Below, piece by piece: positions 26,738 to 61,452 of a stretch of DNA of 64,000 nt (position 1 is the stretch's first letter; each line of letters starts with the position of its first letter). A model generated the notes under the pieces. It had not been told where the DNA came from. It ran no database searches and worked only from the letters and a program-made list of their open reading frames with translations. The DNA comes from Bacteroidaceae bacterium. Lineage in GTDB: Bacteria; Bacteroidota; Bacteroidia; Bacteroidales; Bacteroidaceae. The stretch covers positions 2,864 through 66,863 of the forward strand of contig JAFWXS010000047.1 of the NCBI GenBank assembly GCA_017517925.1. Reading direction: 5' to 3'. Made by a program: the position numbers and the translations under genes.

Positions 26738-29700
26738 TTACATTACCACAAACTTCTTTCCGTTTTGGATGTAGATACCGGTAGGCAGAGTTTCCCGAGT
26801 TCCACTTACGCGCATACCCTTCAGATTATATATAGGAGTATCGTCAGCATCCATAATGACATTCTCAACACCATCTACTACATCATCCTCAATGAAGAAG
26901 AACTCCTTCCACTGGTTAGCAACCATATAAGCATTGAGGCTTCCTACAGGTACTTTAAGCACACAGCTCCACTTATTAATATCATCAAGAGCCTGTGAGC
27001 CACAAACAGGAGGAGTTACTGCATAACTGGTGATTGCTGTTAGGTTAGTACAATCAGAGAAGGCTTCAGTACCAATTGTTTTCATGCTACGACCAAACGA
27101 GAACCCTTCAAGGCTACTACAACCCGAGAAGGCATAGTTTCCGATACTTTTCACGCCATTACCGATGGTCACATCCTGCAAGTTGGTGCAGCCATAGAAC
27201 TCATTGTCGTAAATCTGCTCCTCACGATCGGTAATTACTATCGTGCGCAGCGAGGTATTGCGATAGAAAGGAGAGTAACCCTCACTGCTCGTGGTGCTAT
27301 AGGTAATCTTACCACCGATATATACCGAGTCGAGCGGGCAATCGGCGAACAACGCTGATGAGCCGTTGCTACCCAAACTTAATGCTGTGATGCGGTCTTC
27401 GATGATGACATCGGCCAACTTGCTGCAGCCAACGAATACATTGTCACCTATCTTCGTCACGGCTTGTGGTATCGTGATTGTGGGGAGGGATGAGCAACCT
27501 TGGAAAGCATAGTTGTTGATGGTGGCTACACCACTGCCTATCTTGACATCCTTCAATGAAGAGCAACCAGAGAAAGCATTTGCTTCCAATATCTTAACCT
27601 TATAGCCAATCTCAACGTTCTCCAATCCTATGCAGCCATTGAACATTGTCCCATTAACCTTAATCAAGCCATTGCCCAATACTGCACTCTTCATACCTCT
27701 ACATTCCTTAAAAGCATAGTTGCCGATTGAGGTTATATTATCGCCAATGATAATCTTTTCCAATCCGCAATTGGCAAAGGTATATTCCTTCACATTCTTC
27801 AGTCCATCGCCTATCACCGCATTCTTCATCACTGTGCAACCATAGAAGCAATACGTACCTACCGACTTTACAGAATTGGGGATTACGATTTCTTGCAAAC
27901 TTGTACATCCGCGGAACGCATCATTGCCCAATGAAGTGACCTTATCGCCCAATGTCGCCGACTTCAATGAAACGCAGTCGTAGAAAGCTGAACTATTAAC
28001 GGCACCTGTATTAGCAACAATGGCCGTTTCCAAAGCACCGCAACCACGGAAAGACTTATCGCCTACATATCCAACATTAGATATATCCAGTGACTTGATT
28101 CCATCGCAATCATAAAATGCTTGGCTTTCGATATTTCCTTGGTTTGAGATTGTAGCAGCCAACATTCCATCGCAATCATAGAATGCCTGACTTCCCACAT
28201 TGCCTTCGTTAGAAATCTCTACACTTTGTACACTATCACAATCGTAAAAAGCGTAATCACCGATATTCCCTTTGTGTGAAATATTCACCTCTTTGATATG
28301 CTTGTTCCCATAGAACGTGTATGGCATCACCTCCTTCACAGTCATGGCAATACCCTTGAACGAGGCCGTCTCGCTGACGTTAATCGACTCTGCAGTACTA
28401 TCGTATGCACAATCAATCGCATGACAAGTGCGCTCCGATGGACTTACGGGCACATACTTCACCCCATCCACCTCGAACATGCTGCTCAGGTAGGGATATA
28501 CTTTTACATTGCTAACTCTTGTATACAGGTCGTTAGCCACATAGTTGATGCTTCCCTGAGCATTGGCATAGCCCGTAGGGGGCGTATTGGTCAGCCAAAT
28601 GACCTTTTCGGGAGTACTGAATGCACCGTTGCCAATGGACAGTACGCCACTGCCTATAGTTACAGAATACAAGCTGCTGCAATTATAGAAAGCCTTGTCT
28701 CCAATGCTCGTCACGCCCTCGGGGATGGTGATGGAGGTGAGGCTGCTGCAATTTTGGAAAGTATATTCTTCGATGCTCGTCACGCCCTCGGGAATGTTAA
28801 TGGCCTTGAGGCTGCTGCAACCAGAGAAAGCATACTCGCCAATACTCGCCACACCCTCGGGGATGGTGATGGCGGTAAGGCTGCTGCAAGAATAGAAAGC
28901 GCAATCTCCGATTTTATAATTCTCCCCATTGTAACTATCCGGCAATACGATTTCGGTATCATTGCCTATGTAGTTCACTAATGAATAAATGCCATTGGAA
29001 GTATAGAATTGATAGTCACCAACAGTGGTAAGTTCACCTCCTTGATATACTGCTTTTGCAAAATAGGCGACATTGCCATAGTTGCTTGAGCCTTTAGATA
29101 ATGACAGATTGGAATAGTTGATCACTTTATAGAGGCTGCTGCAACCACTGAAAGCAATGCTTCCAATGCTCGTCACGCCCTCGGGGATGGTGATGGTGGC
29201 GAGGCTGCTGCAATCACTGAAAGCAATGCTTCCAATGCTCGTCACGCTCTCGGGGATGGTGATGGCGGTGAGGCTGCTGCAATTAGAGAAAGTATAGCTT
29301 TCAATGCTCGTCACGCCCTCGGGGATGGTGATGGCGGTGAGGCTGCTACAATCAGAGAAAGCATACTCTCCAATGCTCGTCACACCCTCGGGGAGGATGA
29401 TGGAGGTGAGGCTGCTACAATCAAAGAAAGCATACTCTCCAATGCTCGTCACGCTCTCGGGGAGGGTGATGGCGGTGAGGCTGCTGCAATCACGGAAAGC
29501 AAAACTTCCAATACTCGTCACATTATCACCAATGGTTAGAGTTGTCAACTTTCCTTTGTTATAGAACGGAGAATAGCCATAAAAGCTACCGCTACTGTAA
29601 CTCAAGTTACGTCCCAAGTAAACCTCTTCTAACGGGCAGTCATAGAACAGACCTTCGCCAGTACTAATGCTATAATAATAATAGTTATATCCCAACGATA

Positions 29701-30070
29701 AGGTTGTGTTGCCATCCTCGATGATGACTTTCTTGAGAGCGGTACAATTGCCAAAAGCATAGTTTCCAATGCTCGTCACGCTCTCGGGGATGGTGATGGC
29801 GGTGAGGCTGCTGCAACCATCGAAAGCCCTCTCTCCAATGCTCGTCACACGATACGTCTTGCTATTATAGGTGACGGTGGTGGGGAGGGCGATGGAGCCG
29901 GAGTAATCTTCGTTGCTGTACGAATTTCCCTTGAAGGTCACACCGACCGTGCGCGCAGCTTCAGAGGTGATGTTGTAGTAGATACCCTCTACCGAAAAAT
30001 CATGTGCACTTACCGTGAGGCTGCACAATAGCGTGGCTATCGTGGTCAGCCAAAGTTTAAATGTTTTCAT
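26738..30070 (-). CDS. BspA-type leucine-rich-repeat (LRR_5) surface protein with a T9SS C-terminal sorting domain
   Basis: 1110 aa with a signal peptide. It carries dozens of ~23-aa units (SLTAITIPEGVTSIGxYAFxxCSSL). The C-terminus (IYNLKGMRV...GIYIQNGKKFVVM) looks like a Por secretion tail. Confidence 0.9.
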   Translation of the reverse strand: MKTFKLWLTTIATLLCSLTVSAHDFSVEGIYYNITSEAARTVGVTFKGNSYSNEDYSGSIALPTTVTYNSKTYRVTSIGERAFDGCSSLTAITIPESVTSIGNYAFGNCTALKKVIIEDGNTTLSLGYNYYYYSISTGEGLFYDCPLEEVYLGRNLSYSSGSFYGYSPFYNKGKLTTLTIGDNVTSIGSFAFRDCSSLTAITLPESVTSIGEYAFFDCSSLTSIILPEGVTSIGEYAFSDCSSLTAITIPEGVTSIESYTFSNCSSLTAITIPESVTSIGSIAFSDCSSLATITIPEGVTSIGSIAFSGCSSLYKVINYSNLSLSKGSSNYGNVAYFAKAVYQGGELTTVGDYQFYTSNGIYSLVNYIGNDTEIVLPDSYNGENYKIGDCAFYSCSSLTAITIPEGVASIGEYAFSGCSSLKAINIPEGVTSIEEYTFQNCSSLTSITIPEGVTSIGDKAFYNCSSLYSVTIGSGVLSIGNGAFSTPEKVIWLTNTPPTGYANAQGSINYVANDLYTRVSNVKVYPYLSSMFEVDGVKYVPVSPSERTCHAIDCAYDSTAESINVSETASFKGIAMTVKEVMPYTFYGNKHIKEVNISHKGNIGDYAFYDCDSVQSVEISNEGNVGSQAFYDCDGMLAATISNQGNIESQAFYDCDGIKSLDISNVGYVGDKSFRGCGALETAIVANTGAVNSSAFYDCVSLKSATLGDKVTSLGNDAFRGCTSLQEIVIPNSVKSVGTYCFYGCTVMKNAVIGDGLKNVKEYTFANCGLEKIIIGDNITSIGNYAFKECRGMKSAVLGNGLIKVNGTMFNGCIGLENVEIGYKVKILEANAFSGCSSLKDVKIGSGVATINNYAFQGCSSLPTITIPQAVTKIGDNVFVGCSKLADVIIEDRITALSLGSNGSSALFADCPLDSVYIGGKITYSTTSSEGYSPFYRNTSLRTIVITDREEQIYDNEFYGCTNLQDVTIGNGVKSIGNYAFSGCSSLEGFSFGRSMKTIGTEAFSDCTNLTAITSYAVTPPVCGSQALDDINKWSCVLKVPVGSLNAYMVANQWKEFFFIEDDVVDGVENVIMDADDTPIYNLKGMRVSGTRETLPTGIYIQNGKKFVVM
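28690..29830. repeat. Near-identical ~69-bp DNA repeats encoding consecutive LRR units
   Basis: Repeated strings such as ccaatgctcgtcacgccctcggggatggtgatggcggtgaggctgctgcaa occur many times. Confidence 0.85.
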
Positions 30071-30267
30071 TGTTGTTTGTATTTAAAATTAGGGATAAAA
30101 ATTCTTTCCATAGTGTTTAAAACAAGTTCCTCATTGCTTTCTTCATATAGAAATTTTCCGTCTTCATACGATAATAGGCCTGTTTGTAACAATTCTTCCT
30201 CGAATTTCTGAAGCTTATCGGGGCTAATCTGTTCTATAATGAACATGATGGATAACTGTTTCTTCAT
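30067..30267 (-). CDS. Small acidic hypothetical protein (66 aa)
   Basis: Its start and stop make ATGA overlaps with both neighbours (30264-30267 and 30067-30070). It is very AT-rich and has no signal peptide. Confidence 0.55.
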   Translation of the reverse strand: MKKQLSIMFIIEQISPDKLQKFEEELLQTGLLSYEDGKFLYEESNEELVLNTMERIFIPNFKYKQQ

Positions 30268-30716
30268 AATTCATTTACATTGTTATTTATTATGTTTATA
30301 AGCTCCATAAACAGATTGTAATCCATGGCTCCTCTAGCAGAAAATGATGTAGGTTTAACAGTAGAATAATCTGCAATGATTATCCGTTGGTCTTCCCTAA
30401 AAATTAGTCCGTGCGCAATGGAGTTACGCAAATGTGATAAAAATGATAGGACTTTATCCTTATTTTTAGATTTAGTGAAACAAATTTTATTTTTGAATGT
30501 ACTCAAGTCTACTTTTTGGATTTCCCTTAACCCTGTTTTCGATAGTTCTAAATTCCCAAGAAATAAGGGAAGAATGTGTACTAATTGAGGATGACAACGA
30601 TATACATCTTCTAAAGCATAGAAAAACCCAAATCCGCCCTTTTCATACATACAGATAAAACGATAAAGATCCTTTACCTCATCTTTTGTAAAGCCATTGA
30701 TTTCTTCTTGTTTCAT
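30264..30716 (-). CDS. Hypothetical 150-aa protein with an R-x4-H (HEPN-like) motif
   Basis: The motif LSHLRNSIAHGLIF (R97...H102, nt 30411-30428) matches the HEPN Rx4-6H / RNxxAH signature. The gene is AT-rich, cytoplasmic in type, and first in the three-gene unit. Confidence 0.6.
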   Translation of the reverse strand: MKQEEINGFTKDEVKDLYRFICMYEKGGFGFFYALEDVYRCHPQLVHILPLFLGNLELSKTGLREIQKVDLSTFKNKICFTKSKNKDKVLSFLSHLRNSIAHGLIFREDQRIIIADYSTVKPTSFSARGAMDYNLFMELINIINNNVNEL

Positions 30717-30801
30717 AGTTGCCTAAATTCTTGCCTACCACTCTCCCCGCTTCAGCATTAAGTTAATACTACGGTTATGGATCCTGTTCACGTAGGGACA
30801 T

Positions 30802-30843
30802 AAAAAAGACGTGGGAGAAACTTTCTTGCTTATCCCAATCGTC
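30802..30843 (-). terminator. Intrinsic terminator at the 3' end of structured-RNA copy 1
   Basis: The RNA reads GACG-AUU-GGGAUAAGC-AAGAAA-GUUUCUCCC-A-CGUC followed by UUUUUU. Confidence 0.6.
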
Positions 30844-31225
30844 CGGCCTTCGCATTGCCTATGTACAAGGATAAGCAACTCAGCCAGCCCACGCCGTGCG
30901 GTTTATAAACAACCATCGCCTATGGCACTGCGCGAGATTTTTCACTTCGTTCAAAATGACAAATTTGTTCAGAATGACAAAGCGAGGCCTCGCGGCCATA
31001 GGTTAGGGGTAATAAACGCCCGAAGTGGACGCTTCGTTGCGGTATCTTCTTGTACATAATCAAAGTTGCGAAGTTTGACGATCAGAAGATAACGTTCAGA
31101 AAACGTCCTTTTCCTGCTCCTCGGCGAGGCTCGGTGCTGACGCGAAGTCTGCGGTGAGCGATGCGCTCTCAAAGCACGGAATCCAATATGTCTTGACCCA
31201 CCCATCCCTTGCGAGCTGGCTGAAT
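30802..31225 (-). ncRNA. Candidate structured noncoding RNA or cis-regulatory leader, copy 1 (~420 nt), family unknown
   Basis: It has its own TAnnTTTG box upstream, a terminator at the 3' end, no credible ORF, and a diverged paralog at 60686-60978 that keeps the same helices. Confidence 0.6.
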
Positions 31226-31230
31226 CGCAG

Positions 31231-31238
31231 CAAATGTA
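31231..31238 (-). promoter_or_regulatory. -7 box TACATTTG for structured-RNA copy 1
   Basis: Exact TAnnTTTG match on the minus strand. I did not find a clean -33 TTTG at the canonical spacing. Confidence 0.45.
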
Positions 31239-31299: not shown

Positions 31300-31607
31300 C
31301 CTTGCTTTTCCCCTACGGGCCAGCGACCTAAAGGTTCGGGCGGCGAACACGTTTCACGGGAAATTCATGGAAATTCATGTTTTAAACGCAAACCGAAGTT
31401 CGCATGAAACAAAAAGCTGTGGGGAACTTGAATATTTTTATAATACGTTTCCCTGCGCGGTAGTTAGTGAGGTATTCCGCGGTAATTAGCGAGGTACACC
31501 GCGATAGTTAGCGAGGCATTCCGCGGTAGTTAGCGAGGTATACCGCGATAGTGTCATCCAGAACGAAGTGAACCTTTAGGTCGCTGGCCCGTAGGGGAAA
31601 AGCAAGG
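31300..31607. repeat. Perfect 38-bp inverted repeat (31300-31337 / 31570-31607) enclosing 232 bp; MITE-like or cruciform element
   Basis: CCTTGCTTTTCCCCTACGGGCCAGCGACCTAAAGGTTC and its exact reverse complement. Confidence 0.9.
31456..31553. repeat. Tandem array of 4.5 copies of the 22-bp unit CGCGRTARTTAGYGAGGYAYWC
   Basis: The units lie at 31456-31477, 31478-31499, 31500-31521, 31522-31543, plus a partial unit at 31544-31553. Confidence 0.9.
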
Positions 31608-31668
31608 ATCTCGCAAACGTCTCATGCTAAGTCCCAGCGCGAGATCCCTCTCTAAGCTCGGGATGACA
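31552..31668. repeat. REP-like palindrome of the same family as 1238-1333, with nested modules
   Basis: tgtcatccagaacgaagtgaacc pairs with gagatccctctctaagctcgggatgaca. The interior contains the IR GGATCTCGC...GCGAGATCC. Confidence 0.6.
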
Positions 31669-31697
31669 GAGACTTCTGGGTAAACTCTATATTATTG

Positions 31698-31733
31698 CCA
31701 AAAACAATAGGGGCAGGCACAAGGCCTACCCCT
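31698..31733 (-). terminator. Intrinsic terminator of pepC
   Basis: The minus strand reads AGGGGTAGGC-CTTGT-GCCTGCCCCT followed by ATTGTTTTTGG. Confidence 0.7.
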
Positions 31734-53353: not shown

Positions 53354-54124
53354 TTAAGTTTCAGGTGAATAATGAATTTCTACTTTCTCCTCGGCCTTAT
53401 CATCCACATAGATAGGAGCGTGCGTTTTTCGATATTCGGCATAGTGCTCATTCAGTTGGGATGCAAACAACTGCAACTGAGCCGAGGTATAGAGGCCTGG
53501 TTCACTACCGTTGCTGAACCGGTCGGCTTGTGGCCAATCGGTAAGCCCGAGAACATCTATGGCAAACTGATACTTGCTATTGCTATACACACCAAAATAG
53601 TAGGGCCAGTGTGCGGGTCTCATCAAGATGTCACCCCACGAGAGACGGAAATGTATCGCATCGGCATTTCCTGCTGCCAGTTCTCCACCATTGGTTATCT
53701 CCAGATAAAGGCTCACGCTTTGTACCTTGGTGTCTTCCGTACGCTTAATGAGTATCGGCAAGTAGCCTTTATACTCATGGGCAGGGATTACTCCATTTAG
53801 AATCTCATAGTGCGTAGGACTCACCGCTGTCGTACTATCGGGAACGGCTATCGCACAGAATGTGCGATCATGGTCGGCAAGGCGTCCCATAAGCCAAGTT
53901 TCAATGTATATGGTATCTTCCATCAACATAGAGGGCTGAAGCGCAAACGAATAATTCTTCTCCCATACGTTCTTCTCTACGGACAATACTTCTTCCGTTT
54001 CATGAAAGTATACACGATCGTCCAATGCGTATACCAACCTCTCGTTCTCCTCGCATGCCATGAATATACTTAGCGCGCAAGCAATGCAGATGGTATATAT
54101 ACCTTTTAATCCTCGTTGTTTCAT
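53354..54124 (-). CDS. DUF4843-like lipoprotein (PUL accessory)
   Basis: The internal ATG at 54124 gives the lipoprotein signal MKQRGLKGIYTICIACALSIFMAC. It lies directly after the SusD gene. Confidence 0.65.
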   Translation of the reverse strand: MKQRGLKGIYTICIACALSIFMACEENERLVYALDDRVYFHETEEVLSVEKNVWEKNYSFALQPSMLMEDTIYIETWLMGRLADHDRTFCAIAVPDSTTAVSPTHYEILNGVIPAHEYKGYLPILIKRTEDTKVQSVSLYLEITNGGELAAGNADAIHFRLSWGDILMRPAHWPYYFGVYSNSKYQFAIDVLGLTDWPQADRFSNGSEPGLYTSAQLQLFASQLNEHYAEYRKTHAPIYVDDKAEEKVEIHYSPET

Positions 54125-54134
54125 AGTGTCCTTA

Positions 54135-55643
54135 TTATTTCTCGTTTTCTCTTTCACCGAACTCGACCTCGTCATCGGGCAATGGGAAGGTATAGTTGGG
54201 GGCTACATAAGTCGTGCTGATAGAACTACCCACAGCAGTTTCTATAGGGATGCGTTCGTAGTTCAATCTCTTGTAATAGTAATATATCTGACCTTCACAT
54301 ACGAATTCTTTCAGGTACTCCTTGCGTATTTCCTCGTAAGCCTCCTCCTTTGTTAAATTCAGCGGTAGGTCGTCGATTAGGTTTCTATGACTGCGCACAG
54401 TATTCAGATGACGGATACAAGATTCAATGTTTTGGTTGGCAACCAATTCACACTCTGCAGCAATGTAATATGCTTCTGAAAGTCTCATCAAGGGAATTCG
54501 ATGCATATATCTCGTGTTCCCGCTCATAGGTTGCATATATTTCGTGTTGTATCTCTTTCCGTCCAGTTCCTTGTTTTGGTAGGCATAGCGATAGTCTCCG
54601 AAATATCCCGTATTGAAAAGTTCATAGATGGCATGGTAACTTGTTTCATTCATGATGAGCGACATCTGATTACTTGATGTGAAATAAGACGAATATCTCG
54701 TTCTCAAGTCACTGTCATAGAGCGCAAACACCAATTCCTCGGCAAAGATTCGATTACGCTGTTCATCTTCTGCCACATTTATCTCCTCGTCGGGGGTCCA
54801 ATAGAAAGTGCCCTGTTGTATTACAGATTCTGCAGCAACCAATGCCTCATCGTGCAATCCCATATAGAGATATATTCGAGCCTGCAACAGTTTGACCCCA
54901 TAATAGTTCAACTTGAAGGTACGATCCCTCTCATAGTTGACATCGGCATTTTCAACCTCCTTCTCCGTAGAGGTGTTGCCTTCACCGACAATCACCGGAT
55001 CTCGCGAGAGTTCATGCTCTGCCACAGCCAGATCTTCGAGGCATAAGCCAAGAGCCTCCTCCACAGTGCTGAGTGGGGTGACATCGGCCGTGACACTCTT
55101 CATGTATGGGATGCATTTGTCATTCTTGTCCTTGGCATAAGATGCTCCCCACAATTTGGTGAGGTCAAAATGCAAGAATGCTCTCAAGGCATATGCTTCA
55201 CCACGAATAAGATGATAGTTGCGTCCTGTGAATATTGTGCTATCAGCCTCGTCAATGTGCACAATCAACTCATTGTCATTGCTTAAAGCCGTGTAGGCCT
55301 TACTCCAGATTGAGTTTATGCGCTGTTCACATTCAGCATTCTCATAATCAAATGCTGCATCGTACTTATAGGTGTTATTCGTTGCCATTCCGGTATAGTA
55401 CTGCCCCATGGCGTCCAGCATACCGAAGGTGAGTTCCTTGCCATAGAGGGACTCATCAGTCAGCAAGAGATATACTCCCGTCAGTGCATCCTTATACCCT
55501 TGTTCCGTACTGAAGTTGTCATCAGACTTGATTTGTGTTTTAGGGCTCACGTCAAGCCAATCTTCGCATCCTGTCAAGCAGAGCGATACGAGCAGCAAGC
55601 CATAGGATAAGATATTCTTCTTGATGTTCTGCATAGTTGTCAT
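54135..55643 (-). CDS. RagB/SusD-family nutrient-binding outer-membrane lipoprotein
   Basis: 502 aa with a lipoprotein signal (LCLTGCEDW) and a TPR-like SusD pattern. It lies downstream of the SusC gene. Confidence 0.9.
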   Translation of the reverse strand: MTTMQNIKKNILSYGLLLVSLCLTGCEDWLDVSPKTQIKSDDNFSTEQGYKDALTGVYLLLTDESLYGKELTFGMLDAMGQYYTGMATNNTYKYDAAFDYENAECEQRINSIWSKAYTALSNDNELIVHIDEADSTIFTGRNYHLIRGEAYALRAFLHFDLTKLWGASYAKDKNDKCIPYMKSVTADVTPLSTVEEALGLCLEDLAVAEHELSRDPVIVGEGNTSTEKEVENADVNYERDRTFKLNYYGVKLLQARIYLYMGLHDEALVAAESVIQQGTFYWTPDEEINVAEDEQRNRIFAEELVFALYDSDLRTRYSSYFTSSNQMSLIMNETSYHAIYELFNTGYFGDYRYAYQNKELDGKRYNTKYMQPMSGNTRYMHRIPLMRLSEAYYIAAECELVANQNIESCIRHLNTVRSHRNLIDDLPLNLTKEEAYEEIRKEYLKEFVCEGQIYYYYKRLNYERIPIETAVGSSISTTYVAPNYTFPLPDDEVEFGERENEK

Positions 55644-58862: not shown

Positions 58863-60452
58863 TTACTTCATCACTTTCTTCACCATGCCACCCTGCTTGA
58901 TGATATAAATCTGGGGTGTAGCATCTGTGGTGTAGATACGCTGGCCTGCAAGGTTGTACATCTCTACCTCTTCATTGTTGTCGGCATCAACCATATCCAC
59001 AGAGGAAGCCTTCTGTGCCAAGTCATAGATGTTAACCTCCACTACGTTAGAGGGAGCCGACTCGCCTGTTGCATAAACCGCACAGATCCAAACCTTACAA
59101 TCAGGACCTGATCCCAAGCTTACATTCTGATAGGTGTCAGGGTCATATTCTGTATTCTCAAAGTTGGTCCACCAGAATCCCTGCTTGGTTTCCCATGCAT
59201 TCACATTGTTGTAGACACCGGTCTTCTCCTCAGCAGTGAGGCCGTAGGTATAGCCTGTGCTTGCATTGTATGAACTTCCAAAGTCAACATATACCTTATA
59301 CTCGGTAATGTCCGAAGCCTCGGCGGGAACATCCCACTTCATGTTCAACTCATAGTATGTGCTTACATATCCGTTATTATCATAATCAACCTTCTTGGCA
59401 CCCAGTATCTGGAAGTTCTGCATGGGGAGGTTACCCTCGTCCTTCACGCTCACTACAGTAAAATCAGAGATGTTCTTCTTCTCGCCATTTACCACAGCAA
59501 GAACTGCCACCTGATGTTCACCGTCGAGGAGCATGGGAGTTGTGTATTCGGTTGTTTCTACCTCGACCACATTGTTGTCATACATTACTACATAGGTGGT
59601 AGCACCAGCTACGGCATCCCATGTCACCTTCACCAAGTTACCCTTGAGTGCCTCGGCCTTTACGTTGGCAGGAATCAATGATGCGTCCAATGTTGCATAT
59701 ACATATCTCCACTCCTTTTCAGTCACGCCATAGCGAGAGCTTGCCCATTCTGTTTTGGTCTTTGTCATGCCGTTCTCATAGGTATATGTGGTCTTACCTT
59801 GCAGTGTTGACCACTCCTGACCCTCACCCAAGTTAGGATTATAGTAGGCCTGTGTCATCTCAATCAAATAGCTATTCGCGTCGTAAGTATAGAACTCACC
59901 AAGACCCTTTGAATCGAACTCGCCTGTAGAATAGTTCTTATTCATCTGAATCCTTGACACGAGTTGTTTGTTCTCATTGAAAGTAAGTTCGTAGTGCACC
60001 TCATAGGTAGCCTCTCCCTCTGCATTAGTGTTCTTCATCACCTTGTAATGGCCATTCTCGAATTCCTCAAAAAGTTGACCGCCTGTCGATGTCACCTCAC
60101 CAGCCTGATCAAGGTATTGTAATGTAATCTCTGTGTTGTTGCCTTGGGTATCATACTTGTAAGTGGCAATCTGAGACTTGTAGAAAACACCGCTTGTATT
60201 CCATGTCTCTTTGGTGGCTACAGTACCGTTTTCGTTATAGGTGTAGCGATAATGGCCATAGGCACTGATTTCAATAGCCATCTTGTTGTTACTATCATAG
60301 TAATAGCAGTTAGAAGTCTCATACACCGGCTCCTCCAGTTTTTCTCCTGTAGTAGCATCGAGTGTGTTGTAGCCCTTCTGCTCCACAAGATACTGAGCCG
60401 AAAGACTTGTTGCAGCCATTACGGCAGCGAAAAGAAGTAAAGTTTTCTTCAT
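58863..60452 (-). CDS. T9SS-secreted protein with YD-like repeats and Fn3-like region
   Basis: 529 aa with a signal peptide. It carries repeated YxYDxxG/YTYENG motifs. The C-terminus (MYNLAGQRIY...IYIIKQGGMVKKVMK) looks like a Por secretion tail. Confidence 0.8.
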   Translation of the reverse strand: MKKTLLLFAAVMAATSLSAQYLVEQKGYNTLDATTGEKLEEPVYETSNCYYYDSNNKMAIEISAYGHYRYTYNENGTVATKETWNTSGVFYKSQIATYKYDTQGNNTEITLQYLDQAGEVTSTGGQLFEEFENGHYKVMKNTNAEGEATYEVHYELTFNENKQLVSRIQMNKNYSTGEFDSKGLGEFYTYDANSYLIEMTQAYYNPNLGEGQEWSTLQGKTTYTYENGMTKTKTEWASSRYGVTEKEWRYVYATLDASLIPANVKAEALKGNLVKVTWDAVAGATTYVVMYDNNVVEVETTEYTTPMLLDGEHQVAVLAVVNGEKKNISDFTVVSVKDEGNLPMQNFQILGAKKVDYDNNGYVSTYYELNMKWDVPAEASDITEYKVYVDFGSSYNASTGYTYGLTAEEKTGVYNNVNAWETKQGFWWTNFENTEYDPDTYQNVSLGSGPDCKVWICAVYATGESAPSNVVEVNIYDLAQKASSVDMVDADNNEEVEMYNLAGQRIYTTDATPQIYIIKQGGMVKKVMK

Positions 60453-60685
60453 AATGTAAATGTTTTTGTTAGTAAAGTTAGTAAATAGTGGTTATATATA
60501 ATATAATATCTTCAAGCATTGAATCAAATAGACACAACGGAAGTTGTGCAAAGGGAATCATGAACTTTTTAGTTCATCAACTGTTGTAGGTTTGTATTGC
60601 AGAGTAGCTTGAATGGTGTTTTATAGTGTCCGCCGATGCCCAATACGGAGATATTATCGTGCTATATTCTTCCATTATACATAAC

Positions 60686-60721
60686 AAAAAAGCGGGGCAC
60701 CCCACTTGCTGCTTATCCCGC
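60686..60721 (-). terminator. Intrinsic terminator at the 3' end of structured-RNA copy 2
   Basis: The RNA reads GCGGG-AUAA-GCA-(GCAAGUGGGG)-UGC-CCCGC followed by UUUUUU. Confidence 0.55.
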
Positions 60722-60978
60722 GTCCAAGGCTCTCGCATTGCCTAAACCAGTCTGGATAAGCAACACAGAAGCCCACGCCGATATGTATAATATACCACAC
60801 TCCACATCCGTGGAGATTCTCAGTGGCAATTAACACATCACGTAGACATCTACCGTTGCTCTGCTTTGACTGGTTTCTTAGAATTTGCGAGATTCTGGAT
60901 CGCCAAAGACAAAACGTCAAGTAAACGTCTTTCTCATTATGTATACCGCCCACCCTCGAAGCCCGTCGGGATGAACGA
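60686..60978 (-). ncRNA. Candidate structured noncoding RNA or cis-regulatory leader, copy 2 (~290 nt), family unknown
   Basis: It has a canonical promoter (60984-61014) and a terminator, no credible ORF, and it is collinear with copy 1 (30802-31225) with compensatory helix changes. Confidence 0.65.
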
Positions 60979-60983
60979 TGTGG

Positions 60984-61014
60984 CAAAAGTAATGCAATTT
61001 GAAGAAAAAACAAA
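60984..61014 (-). promoter_or_regulatory. Bacteroidetes-type promoter: -33 TTTG, 19-nt spacer, -7 TACTTTTG
   Basis: The minus strand reads CATTTG-(19 nt)-TACTTTTG. It lies downstream of the tRNA-Asn terminator, so it starts an independent transcript. Confidence 0.55.
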
Positions 61015-61078
61015 TGAAAATATCGTTTTTTTTTGGCAGAGCGTACAAAGTGCCTACAAGTCTCTTCCATTAAGTCAA

Positions 61079-61110
61079 ACAAAAGAGGCTCATCTCGCGA
61101 TGAACCTCTC
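61079..61110 (-). terminator. Intrinsic terminator of the tRNA-Asn pair
   Basis: The RNA reads GAGAGGUUCAUC-GCGA-GAUGAGCCUCUU followed by UUUG. The stem is 12 bp with a GNRA loop. Confidence 0.75.
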
Positions 61111-61113
61111 TTG

Positions 61114-61187
61114 CTCTTCGTCTTGGACTTGAACCAAGGACCCTCTGATTAACAGTCAGATGCTCTAACCGACTGAGCTAACGAAGA
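61114..61187 (-). tRNA. tRNA-Asn (anticodon GTT), copy 1
   Basis: The reverse complement is TCTTCGTTAGCTCAGTCGGTTAGAGCATCTGACTGTTAATCAGAGGGTCCTTGGTTCAAGTCCAAGACGAAGAG, which folds as a canonical cloverleaf. Confidence 0.95.
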
Positions 61188-61209
61188 ATATTCTAACCCT
61201 TAAATCTTG

Positions 61210-61283
61210 CTCTTCGTCTTGGACTTGAACCAAGGACCCTCTGATTAACAGTCAGATGCTCTAACCGACTGAGCTAACGAAGA
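61210..61283 (-). tRNA. tRNA-Asn (anticodon GTT), copy 2 (identical sequence)
   Basis: The same 74-nt sequence, 22 nt upstream of copy 1. Confidence 0.95.
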
Positions 61284-61452
61284 ATATTTGCGCAAAAAAG
61301 TAGTTTTGTCGGTTTTATTTCACTTTTTTGCTTGCGACTGAAAGAAAAAACGATTTTTTCTCTCAATTGCGCTGCAAAAGTAATAGGATATTTTGAAATA
61401 AGCAATAACTTTGTGGAAAAATTTACAGAAAACGACAAATAACGCTACAAAA

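Follow-up and report, generated by a model that had tools for sequence, protein, structure and literature searches.

Members of the Bacteroidales are dominant in the human gut and the rumen. How they colonise, how the immune system recognises them and which phages can infect them is decided by their surface proteins, capsules and phage defences, and known control of Bacteroidales surface and capsule genes runs mostly through DNA inversion plus UpxY/UpxZ. Structured cis-acting RNAs tied to surface or extracellular operons, such as the eps-associated RNA (EAR) of Bacillus and put of phage HK022, affect terminator read-through. The opsX element, ~40 bp of DNA in the capsule leaders of B. fragilis, carries a YGCGNAGCR hairpin in the non-template strand and has the start codon at +41/42 (PMC11685472), and the FopS small RNAs (sRNAs), ~65-70 nt long, act in trans through a 5' seed on susC mRNAs (PMC11697453). 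Here we describe an RNA element that occurs twice in a 64,000-nt stretch of DNA (the window; contig JAFWXS010000047.1 of assembly GCA_017517925.1, a Bacteroidaceae bacterium, positions 2,864 to 66,863) and recurs across Bacteroidales. It is probably a cis-acting terminator/antiterminator leader RNA, that is, a transcription attenuator, to which we assign a probability of roughly 60%. This reading is suggested by a dedicated promoter, a conserved compact fold, terminator arms common to helices of that fold, placement on the same strand as the genes behind it, and a covarying contact across the terminator.

The element was analysed chiefly in its shorter copy, copy 2. Coordinates are positions within the window, and p numbers the positions of copy 2 starting at the T of its -7 box (window coordinate = 60991 - p). 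The two copies, and the signals that bound copy 2, are as follows.

61011..61014, minus strand: TTTG, the -33 element of the RNA's own promoter, read directly, 19 nt upstream of the -7 box
60984..60991, minus strand: TACTTTTG, the -7 element, of the Bacteroidetes TAnnTTTG type, read directly
60686..60980, minus strand: leader RNA copy 2, ~295 nt, its 5' end placed from the promoter and its 3' end from the U tract
60686..60721 (p270-305), minus strand: predicted intrinsic terminator, with 5' arm GCGGG at 60717-60721 (site B), 3' arm CCCGC at 60692-60696 and U6 at 60686-60691
30802..31238, minus strand: copy 1 of the RNA, 437 nt with extra inserts, recognized by homology to copy 2, weaker but clear

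Direct reading confirmed the promoter boxes, the RNA end (a hairpin, then the U6) and the terminator of the preceding tRNA genes on the minus strand, all where an earlier note on this DNA had placed them, and the note's view that this is the second copy of a structured RNA is borne out by the homologue at ~30802-31238. Copy 2 had further been taken for a short 'core' version, and at 306 nt from -7 box to U tract it is among the shortest members, near the lower end of the family's span of 281-510 nt. Its 295 nt fold at -118.8 kcal/mol, compared with -86.9 +/- 4.9 kcal/mol for dinucleotide shuffles (z = -6.5), and 0 of 200 shuffles were as good. The most conserved 10-mer, GGCAATGCGA, has exact matches in the window at copies 1 and 2 only; its one-mismatch matches there occur at chance frequency and without flanking blocks.

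Two scans sampled the family, and the counts given below for promoter, structure and cargo refer to the matches listed in these two exact-pattern scans. The first, of one genome per species, used the pattern CGGCGTGGGC-N15-45-TAGGCAATGCGA and returned at least 119 stretches; ~115 of the matches listed are true members, after L004, L036, L050 and L081, and later also L093 (in a Nitrospira-labelled bin), were set aside as chance matches. The second, independent scan, of metagenome contigs, used the pattern TCGCAANTT-N12-42-GCAACGGTAGATG from the other half of the RNA and returned at least 120 stretches. The 3' block was present in 102 of its 112 usable matches, with GGCAATGCGA almost invariant and GGCAAUGCGA the most conserved block of the family. 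Site A, a switch sequence described below, reads exactly CGGCGTGGGC in 73 of these 102 members; most members of the second sample read TGGGCAATGCGA, so the first pattern sampled a subset only. Carriers among the matches listed include Prevotella, Prevotellaceae, Paludibacteraceae, Muribaculaceae, Parabacteroides, Paraprevotella, Bacteroidaceae, Phocaeicola and Leyella stercorea DSM 18206. Nearly all loci are in Bacteroidales, with a few in bins labelled as other phyla, and conservation thus extends well beyond close relatives. Several copies are found per genome (at least five in one assembly with the strict pattern), and plasmids of 92-95 kb in Phocaeicola dorei and P. vulgatus carry the RNA without annotation, for example pBdorCL06T03-4 of P. 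dorei CL06T03C03, with the element at 53938-54181. Among viral contigs the strict pattern gave no match, and 6 of 71 matches to a relaxed pattern were true members, all on viral or prophage contigs in IMG/VR (L259, L262, L276, L284, L295 and L305). A TAnnTTTG box matching that of copy 2 lies 190-390 nt upstream of the conserved 3' block in 98 of 104 members with enough flank, which supports the RNA as a predicted independent transcription unit.

Strong covariation supports a structured RNA family. The hand-derived model comprises 60 pairs in 10 helices, and its elements in copy 2 are listed here from 5' to 3'.

60945..60979 (p12-46), minus strand: P1, 5' hairpin AUCGUUCAUCCCGA ... UCGAGGGUGGGCGGU, from the minimum free energy structure
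60912..60930 (p61-65 with p75-79), minus strand: P2, hairpin AGACG-UUUACUUGA-CGUUU, 96% paired
60920-60924 (p67-71) with 60850-60854 (p137-141), minus strand: PK1, pseudoknot of the P2 loop with GGUAG, 94% paired
p80-87 with p123-129: P3a, the weakest helix, 73% paired
60896..60903 (p88-95) with 60720-60726 (p265-271), minus strand: H_LR, long-range helix, 95.6% paired
60881..60895 (p96-110), minus strand: P3, hairpin GAAU-CUCGCAA-AUUC
60886-60892 (p99-105) with 60731-60737 (p254-260), minus strand: the kiss, UCUCGCA with UGCGAGA in the P6 loop, 7 bp
60833..60859, minus strand: conserved centre GCAACGGUAGAUG, then the P4 5' strand GUCUACGUGAUGUGU, a near-invariant block in alignments
p144-158 with p205-220: P4, which surrounds the variable hairpin and uses site A
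60791..60831, minus strand: variable hairpin insert within P4, the main site of length variation in the family, larger in copy 1
60771..60780 (p211-220), minus strand: site A, CGGCGUGGGC, a switch sequence that can pair with the centre (P4) or with the terminator 3' arm
60754-60764 with 60708-60718 (p227-237 with p273-283), minus strand: P5, GUUGCUUAUCC with GGAUAAGCAGC, 89.6% paired
60727-60743 (p248-264), minus strand: P6, AGGC-AAUGCGAGA-GCCU, partner in the kiss

Pairing was counted in alignment A2, which contains 44 non-redundant members including both window copies, has the variable insert cut out and is partly hand-anchored. It replaced an all-against-all column covariation analysis of a raw MAFFT alignment, which gave many ambiguous three-way signals because several segments of the RNA resemble each other. 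Over the 60 pairs, 89.8% of cells are paired, compared with 38-44% when partners are slid by 1-3 columns, and both-sided changes affect 31 pairs in 319 cells, compared with 113 +/- 14 cells in shuffles (0 of 500 reach the observed value). Frequent G-U pairs indicate that the constraint acts on RNA of the minus strand, that is, the strand of the element. Compensatory pairs are found in PK1 (4/5), H_LR (6/7) and P5 (6/11), the last of which surrounds P6 and the H_LR 3' strand. H_LR sequences differ widely among members (for example, CAUUUCAG/CUGAAAUG in L024). The kiss is paired in 44 of 44 sequences, with two positions swapping U-A and C-G in 20-22 sequences, and exists in three variants, namely UCUCGCA:UGCGAGA, CUUCGCA:UGCGAAG (copy 1, compensatory relative to copy 2) and UGUCGCA:UGCGACA. 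The three kiss bases beside the invariant CGCA are complementary in 98 of 98 members of the first sample and in 102 of 102 of the independent one, and inverted repeat I6, found in the raw window, is an independent recovery of the H_LR and kiss region contact. The centre GCAAC is complementary to GUUGC at 60760-60764, in the outer part of P5 (97.7% paired), and the P4 strand keeps its pairing with site A through C/U and A/G changes. P1 varies more than any other part of the family; many homologues have a hairpin that matches it, CCCACGCC/GGGCGUGGG, and the G-rich 3' arm of P1 resembles site A.

The helices of this fold share sequence with the terminator. The usual family terminator pairs CGUGGGA (site B) with UCCCACG ahead of a U tract (89.6% paired, four of seven pairs compensatory), and almost all members of the two samples retain a GC-rich stem with 4-9 consecutive U behind it. 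Site B shares 2 nt with the 3' strand of H_LR and 3 nt with that of P5, and site A is complementary to the terminator 3' arm in 98.4% of cells. The 3' arm varies only from C to U or from A to G, by which wobble pairing with the invariant site A is kept, and site B changes so as to keep Watson-Crick pairs. Members with the site A variant GCGUGAG have a 3' arm reading YUCACGC in 9 of 10 distinct sequences, compared with 1 of 57 for standard site A (Fisher p = 2e-9; independent sample), and their centre reads GYCUU, which pairs with GAGGC. Centre, site A and 3' arm thus change together in this variant, indicating that site A is shared between P4 and the base helix of the terminator. By complementarity, the C-rich 3' arm can pair, mutually exclusively, with three upstream G-rich segments. 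A terminator scan of copy 2 also returned an alternative local hairpin, and a further hairpin follows the terminator.

60707-60690, minus strand: alternative local hairpin AAGUGGGGUGCCCCGCUU followed by a T run
60629..60649, minus strand: hairpin 2, UCCGU-AUUGGGCAUCG-GCGGA, after the terminator

Hairpin 2 is present in many members, mostly outside the Paludibacteraceae subgroup, 20-45 nt past the U tract and 10-40 nt ahead of the start codon. Its loops (UGGGGAAC, UGGGGAUUC, UUGGGGAUUCG or AGGGGAGUC) are complementary to the terminator 3' arm together with the 3-4 nt before it (GUUCCCA, GAAUCCCA, GACUCCCA). In copy 1, GGGAGAG pairs with UUUCUCCC; in copy 2, the loop GGGCAUC (60635-60641) matches the 3'-arm sequence GGUGCCC (60695-60701), and both are atypical for the family. 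The longest complementary run between loop and arm averages 5.67 for true partners, compared with 5.01 +/- 0.08 for swapped partners (maximum of 5.28 in 200 permutations). Hairpin 2 is transcribed only past the terminator and its contact is conserved, which implies that read-through transcripts exist and matter. The same contact favours a role in cis, and with it the shared regulatory role that had been suggested for the two copies alongside a trans-acting alternative.

We propose the following scheme for the switch. A constitutive-type Bacteroidetes promoter would start a ~300-nt pseudoknotted RNA that ends in the helix of an intrinsic terminator, just before the gene or genes under its control. 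When the compact fold (P4, P5, H_LR and the kiss) occupies sites A and B, the terminator stem would be blocked and polymerase would enter the downstream gene; should the fold fail, site A or B would pair with the 3' arm, leading to termination and release of the ~300-nt RNA. In a read-through mRNA, hairpin 2 would hold the freed 3' arm. The input that tips the balance could be a protein or, as in riboswitches, a small ligand.

Several considerations weigh against this scheme. Transcript ends, termination efficiency, read-through and the default state are predicted from the DNA letters, and with several competing helices the folding order and the default state are not derivable from sequence. 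The typical site B terminator, with a 7-bp stem and a 16-20-nt loop, is a poor match to canonical intrinsic terminators, which leaves the true terminating helix uncertain. In copy 2, the U tract is 233 nt from the start codon of the gene at 58863-60452, compared with the family's usual 30-70 nt; this spacer contains, between hairpin 2 and the start codon at 60452, a hairpin (GCACAACUUCCGUUGUGU, 60532-60549, minus strand) and a sigma-70-like match (60498-60527, minus strand), and the gene could therefore have a promoter of its own. The covariation counts rest on exact-pattern sequences and on partly hand-anchored alignments with the variable insert cut out, and the GUGAG variant may be a single clade, in which case its Fisher test overstates independence. 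Finally, the cargo is of such variety that it points to no particular metabolite as ligand.

Placement relative to genes is tightly constrained. Of 116 instances, 93 have a same-strand open reading frame (ORF) that begins 100-450 nt past the beginning of the 3' block (median 164 nt, ~30-70 nt past the U tract) and within ~350 nt of the terminator, and ORFs lie on the strand of the RNA in 233 of 253 cases downstream compared with 145 of 216 upstream. By a crude test for signal peptides, 65 of 93 first downstream ORFs (70%) are signal-peptide-like, compared with 57 of 257 upstream ORFs (22%; odds ratio 8, Fisher p = 5e-16). Recurrent cargo comprises small lipoproteins without Pfam matches and CsgG-like, caspase-domain and WG-repeat proteins, and a NusG/KOW protein of the UpxY type is directly behind the RNA at at least eight loci. 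A minority of the cargo is cytoplasmic and defence-like, as exemplified by a HEPN-like ORF behind copy 1 (weak matches) and an AbiH-like N-terminus in L049 (by eye). The members on viral contigs are followed by ORFs for proteins that are not secreted but look defence-like, among them, as judged by eye, a helicase resembling UvrD and a GTPase resembling EF-Tu, next to proteins without assigned function. Many accessory and cell-surface genes might thus be placed under one signal, since copies precede exported-protein, UpxY-like capsule-regulator and defence-like genes. At UpxY-linked members (L003, L019, L021, L041, L052, L056, L062, L073 and L079) we observed a short common motif past the terminator, GUGUC-GAGCAUCG or AUGUCC..., ~0-45 nt past the U tract, with the start codon within ..CCGAUAUG. 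This motif may be a Prevotella counterpart of the opsX recruitment site (ops-like).

The first gene behind copy 2 bears on the proposed link to surface proteins secreted by the type IX secretion system (T9SS).

58863..60452, minus strand: 529-aa protein with the signal-peptide-like N-terminus MKKTLLLFAAVMAATSLSAQ, from the ORF translation

The next gene encodes a SusC-like TonB-dependent receptor. The 529-aa protein has a weak fn3 match only; no T9SS C-terminal sorting domain (Por_Secre_tail / TIGR04183 type) was found in it in Pfam or NCBIfam, even with the last 99 aa at E<=10, and its tail (...VEMYNLAGQRIYTT...YIIKQGGMVKKVMK) resembles such a domain by eye only. The earlier note's description of this gene as T9SS cargo was therefore not confirmed, and neither window protein showed a T9SS sorting domain. 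The part of the claim that stands is the link to surface-protein genes, carried by the enrichment of exported proteins; T9SS specificity does not stand. The link extends to exported and accessory proteins generally, including UpxY-like NusG paralogues and defence-like genes. Five Logan metagenome contigs (L241-L245) encode the exact 529-aa protein, and all end inside the RNA near P2 (window ~60931); assemblers evidently break at this multi-copy RNA element.

Copy 1 has a -7 box, a U tract and a hairpin 2, as copy 2 does, and a different set of neighbours on the same strand.

31231-31238, minus strand: TACATTTG, the -7 box of copy 1, whose U tract is at 30802-30807 and hairpin 2 at 30736-30757
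30264-30716, minus strand: 150-aa ORF with an RNSIAH (Rx4H) motif and weak HEPN / Cas13-HEPN-like matches
30067-30267, minus strand: 66-aa ORF
26738-30070, minus strand: BspA-type leucine-rich-repeat (LRR) protein of 1110 aa

The 150-aa and 66-aa ORFs may form a small toxin-like pair and not belong to the 'LRR operon' to which this copy had been assigned. About 60 nt upstream of the copy 1 -7 box, a perfect 38-bp inverted repeat (31300-31337 / 31570-31607) surrounds 232 nt that include 4-5 tandem repeats of 22 nt (31456-31565), and the whole unit (31300-31607) looks like a miniature inverted-repeat transposable element (MITE) or an invertible segment. Strings resembling repetitive extragenic palindromes, GUCAUUCUGAAC..GAAGUGAAAAAUCUCGCG and GUCAUCCCGAGC..GGGAUCUCGCG, are found at 30925-31000 and 31640-31700 (both minus strand), that is, within the variable insert of copy 1 and also upstream of the 38-bp inverted repeat.

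Copy 2 follows a pair of tRNA genes, which raises the question of whether it is their trailer.

61209-61283 and 61113-61187, minus strand: tRNA-Asn(GTT) pair, from the tRNA models in the Rfam scan
~61079-61110, minus strand: hairpin AGAGGUUCAUC-GCGA-GAUGAGCCUCU followed by a U run, a strong terminator after the tRNA pair

We rejected a tRNA trailer or co-transcript: a strong terminator stands behind the tRNA pair, the RNA has -33 and -7 boxes of its own, as homologues have their own TAnnTTTG box, and homologues do not adjoin tRNA genes, a tRNA being near 1 of 18 scanned loci at ~1.9 kb distance. That the RNA is transcribed on its own had been anticipated, as had the poor credibility of the ORFs overlapping it, 60675..61082 (minus strand) and 60866..61132 (plus strand). 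These frames are open mechanically and are not conserved among homologues, which differ instead by frequent indels and paired substitutions; RNA-overlapping ORFs cluster only as 3-4 close relatives (clusters C10, C13 and C14). A/T-rich inverted repeats (19-26 nt, 77-89% complementary; 61016-61042 / 61342-61394) flank the tRNA-Asn pair and its promoter region and are probably low-complexity chance matches. An invertible promoter for copy 2 was likewise rejected; no inverted repeats flank the promoter, those round the tRNA pair being the only ones found.

Other functions could be imagined for such an element. It might be a processive antitermination RNA like HK022 put or Bacillus EAR, with a leader that binds polymerase and lets it resist its own and later terminators or Rho, which would secure the expression of surface, capsule and defence operons that are long or foreign. 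The cargo theme does resemble RfaH and EAR regulons: the RNA is promoter-proximal to accessory, often horizontally acquired operons, including UpxY-first capsule-type loci and defence-like genes, and it is larger, more compact and more pseudoknotted than a simple attenuator needs to be. We consider this unlikely, because no sequence or structure match links the RNA to EAR or another Rfam family, many cargo units are single short genes without need of a processivity factor, and the sequence that the terminator arm has in common with fold helices, like the alternative partners of site A, points to structural competition rather than modification of polymerase. A stand-alone trans-acting small or medium RNA, regulatory or protein-binding and near surface genes through co-inheritance alone, would account for the promoter and terminator of its own, for the multi-copy occurrence (at least five in one assembly), as in the likewise multi-copy FopS sRNA family (PMC11697453), and for the 233 nt between copy 2 and its downstream gene. 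It is nevertheless rather improbable, given that the next ORF is closely confined in strand and distance, that hairpin 2 covaries with the terminator it follows and makes sense only in read-through transcripts, and that no exposed, conserved single-stranded seed is evident, the most conserved blocks being internally paired.

Bacteroidales hosts are Shine-Dalgarno-poor bacteria, and the element could also be a 5' untranslated region module for mRNA stability or translation, in which the stem and U tract are structural and the contact of hairpin 2 with the 3' arm gates ribosome access. The position of hairpin 2 just ahead of the start codon, its pairing with the 3' arm and the long loop of the typical terminator stem, which may weaken the terminator, are consistent with this; the retention in nearly all members of a GC-rich stem with 4-9 U, a hallmark of intrinsic terminators and needless for a purely translational device, makes it quite improbable. 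Most improbable of all is a DNA-level repeat, such as a MITE, a recombination site or a mobile promoter cassette, that would owe its conservation to spread and not to RNA function. The element is multi-copy, is found on a plasmid of Phocaeicola and in a few contigs of viruses or prophages, interrupts metagenome assemblies and precedes very diverse cargo. Its copies are, however, only 60-75% identical and yet keep their pairing by compensatory and G-U changes on one strand, unlike recently spread repeats, and no terminal inverted repeats, target duplications or associated transposase were found. The attenuator reading accommodates the strand bias, the shared terminator arms and the contact across the terminator together.

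The RNA appears to be absent from current catalogues. Rfam 15 (4227 covariance models) found two tRNAs only in the whole window at the gathering threshold. At E<=10, both copies gave weak chance matches only (BTnc231, by its 3' terminator, at the terminator of the tRNA pair, and SAM with 15 bits), so that the Rfam part of the check proposed for the two copies returned no family match at either threshold. At 18 other family loci Rfam returned nothing at the RNA; a cobalamin riboswitch is present at L062 (2164-2370), the locus of one family member but unrelated to that member. Literature searched by topic and by conserved sequence strings held no description, with Prezza et al. 2022 (Bacteroides RNA families) outside the coverage, so that a prior description there is possible; the elements in the B. 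fragilis opsX paper, a human-microbiome structured-RNA catalogue, the FopS/RbpB paper and the BT1927 S-layer paper are different ones.

If the attenuator reading is correct, a widespread multi-copy leader RNA would add an RNA-level regulatory layer to surface, capsule and defence genes, with a regulon readable straight from genome sequence. A bolder proposal, which we hold tentatively and at somewhat under even odds, is that this large (~300 nt) pseudoknotted RNA belongs to a new class, either a riboswitch for an unrecognised signal or a polymerase- or protein-dependent antiterminator, that it provides one switch for dozens of dispersed genes per genome, namely those for the cell surface, capsule regulators and anti-phage functions, in Bacteroidales of both gut and rumen, and that its 'lock' hairpin couples the transcriptional decision to the state of the translation start region of the mRNA. 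A ligand as input would make it an orphan riboswitch of unusual size, and a protein a new antitermination system. To RNA biologists it presents a large structured RNA, so far unlisted, whose tertiary contacts are clear and whose competing helices round one terminator are unusually rich, and its multiplicity explains the breaks of metagenome assemblies at these loci.

Among the systems described at the outset, FopS/GibS sRNAs share with the present RNA many paralogous copies, canonical Bacteroides promoters and a link to outer-membrane and surface functions (PMC11697453). They are among the BTnc families in Rfam, whereas the present RNA is 4-6 times larger, internally paired and placed as a leader; at 281-510 nt, and with no BTnc-family match covering it, it falls outside that group. 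The opsX/UpxY leaders are alike in preceding upxY-type genes (at least eight family members) and in a GCG..AGC-like string in the block UGCGAGAGCC. In contrast to opsX, the GCGAGA string of the present RNA sits in a covarying RNA-RNA kiss ~100-130 nt ahead of the start codon, and most members lack upxY. We rejected an ops-like reading of UGCGAGAGCC as superficial, because the string covaries with an upstream RNA loop; as UGCGA[GAC][AG]GCC it is also one base longer. EAR and put likewise affect read-through, yet they do not overlap the terminators they suppress and are shorter (~120 and ~70 nt), whereas the terminator here lies inside the conserved structure, and their covariance models had no match at either copy, even at E<=10.

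The closest general resemblance is to riboswitches and attenuators such as cobalamin and lysine riboswitches and T-box leaders. T-box leaders proper can be set apart: there was no Rfam match, a specifier loop, the T-box sequence (14-mer) and aminoacyl-tRNA synthetase genes are absent, and the genes downstream are for exported, capsule and defence functions. As in the wider group, a promoter-proximal structured leader lies directly upstream of genes on the same strand (here a covarying fold, with 233 of 253 downstream ORFs on the strand of the RNA), the multi-helix fold is held by long-range loop-loop and pseudoknot contacts, and a switch sequence is common to a fold helix and the terminator. 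Mutually exclusive terminator and antiterminator pairings are predicted in that site A can pair with the centre or the 3' arm and site B overlaps H_LR and P5. The RNA is therefore a riboswitch candidate, although its gene context suggests no ligand. It differs from known members of this group in having no Rfam 15 match and many copies per genome, in a cargo of exported, capsule-regulator and defence genes rather than a metabolic pathway, and in a terminator arm for which at least three partners compete, with a fourth lying past the terminator.

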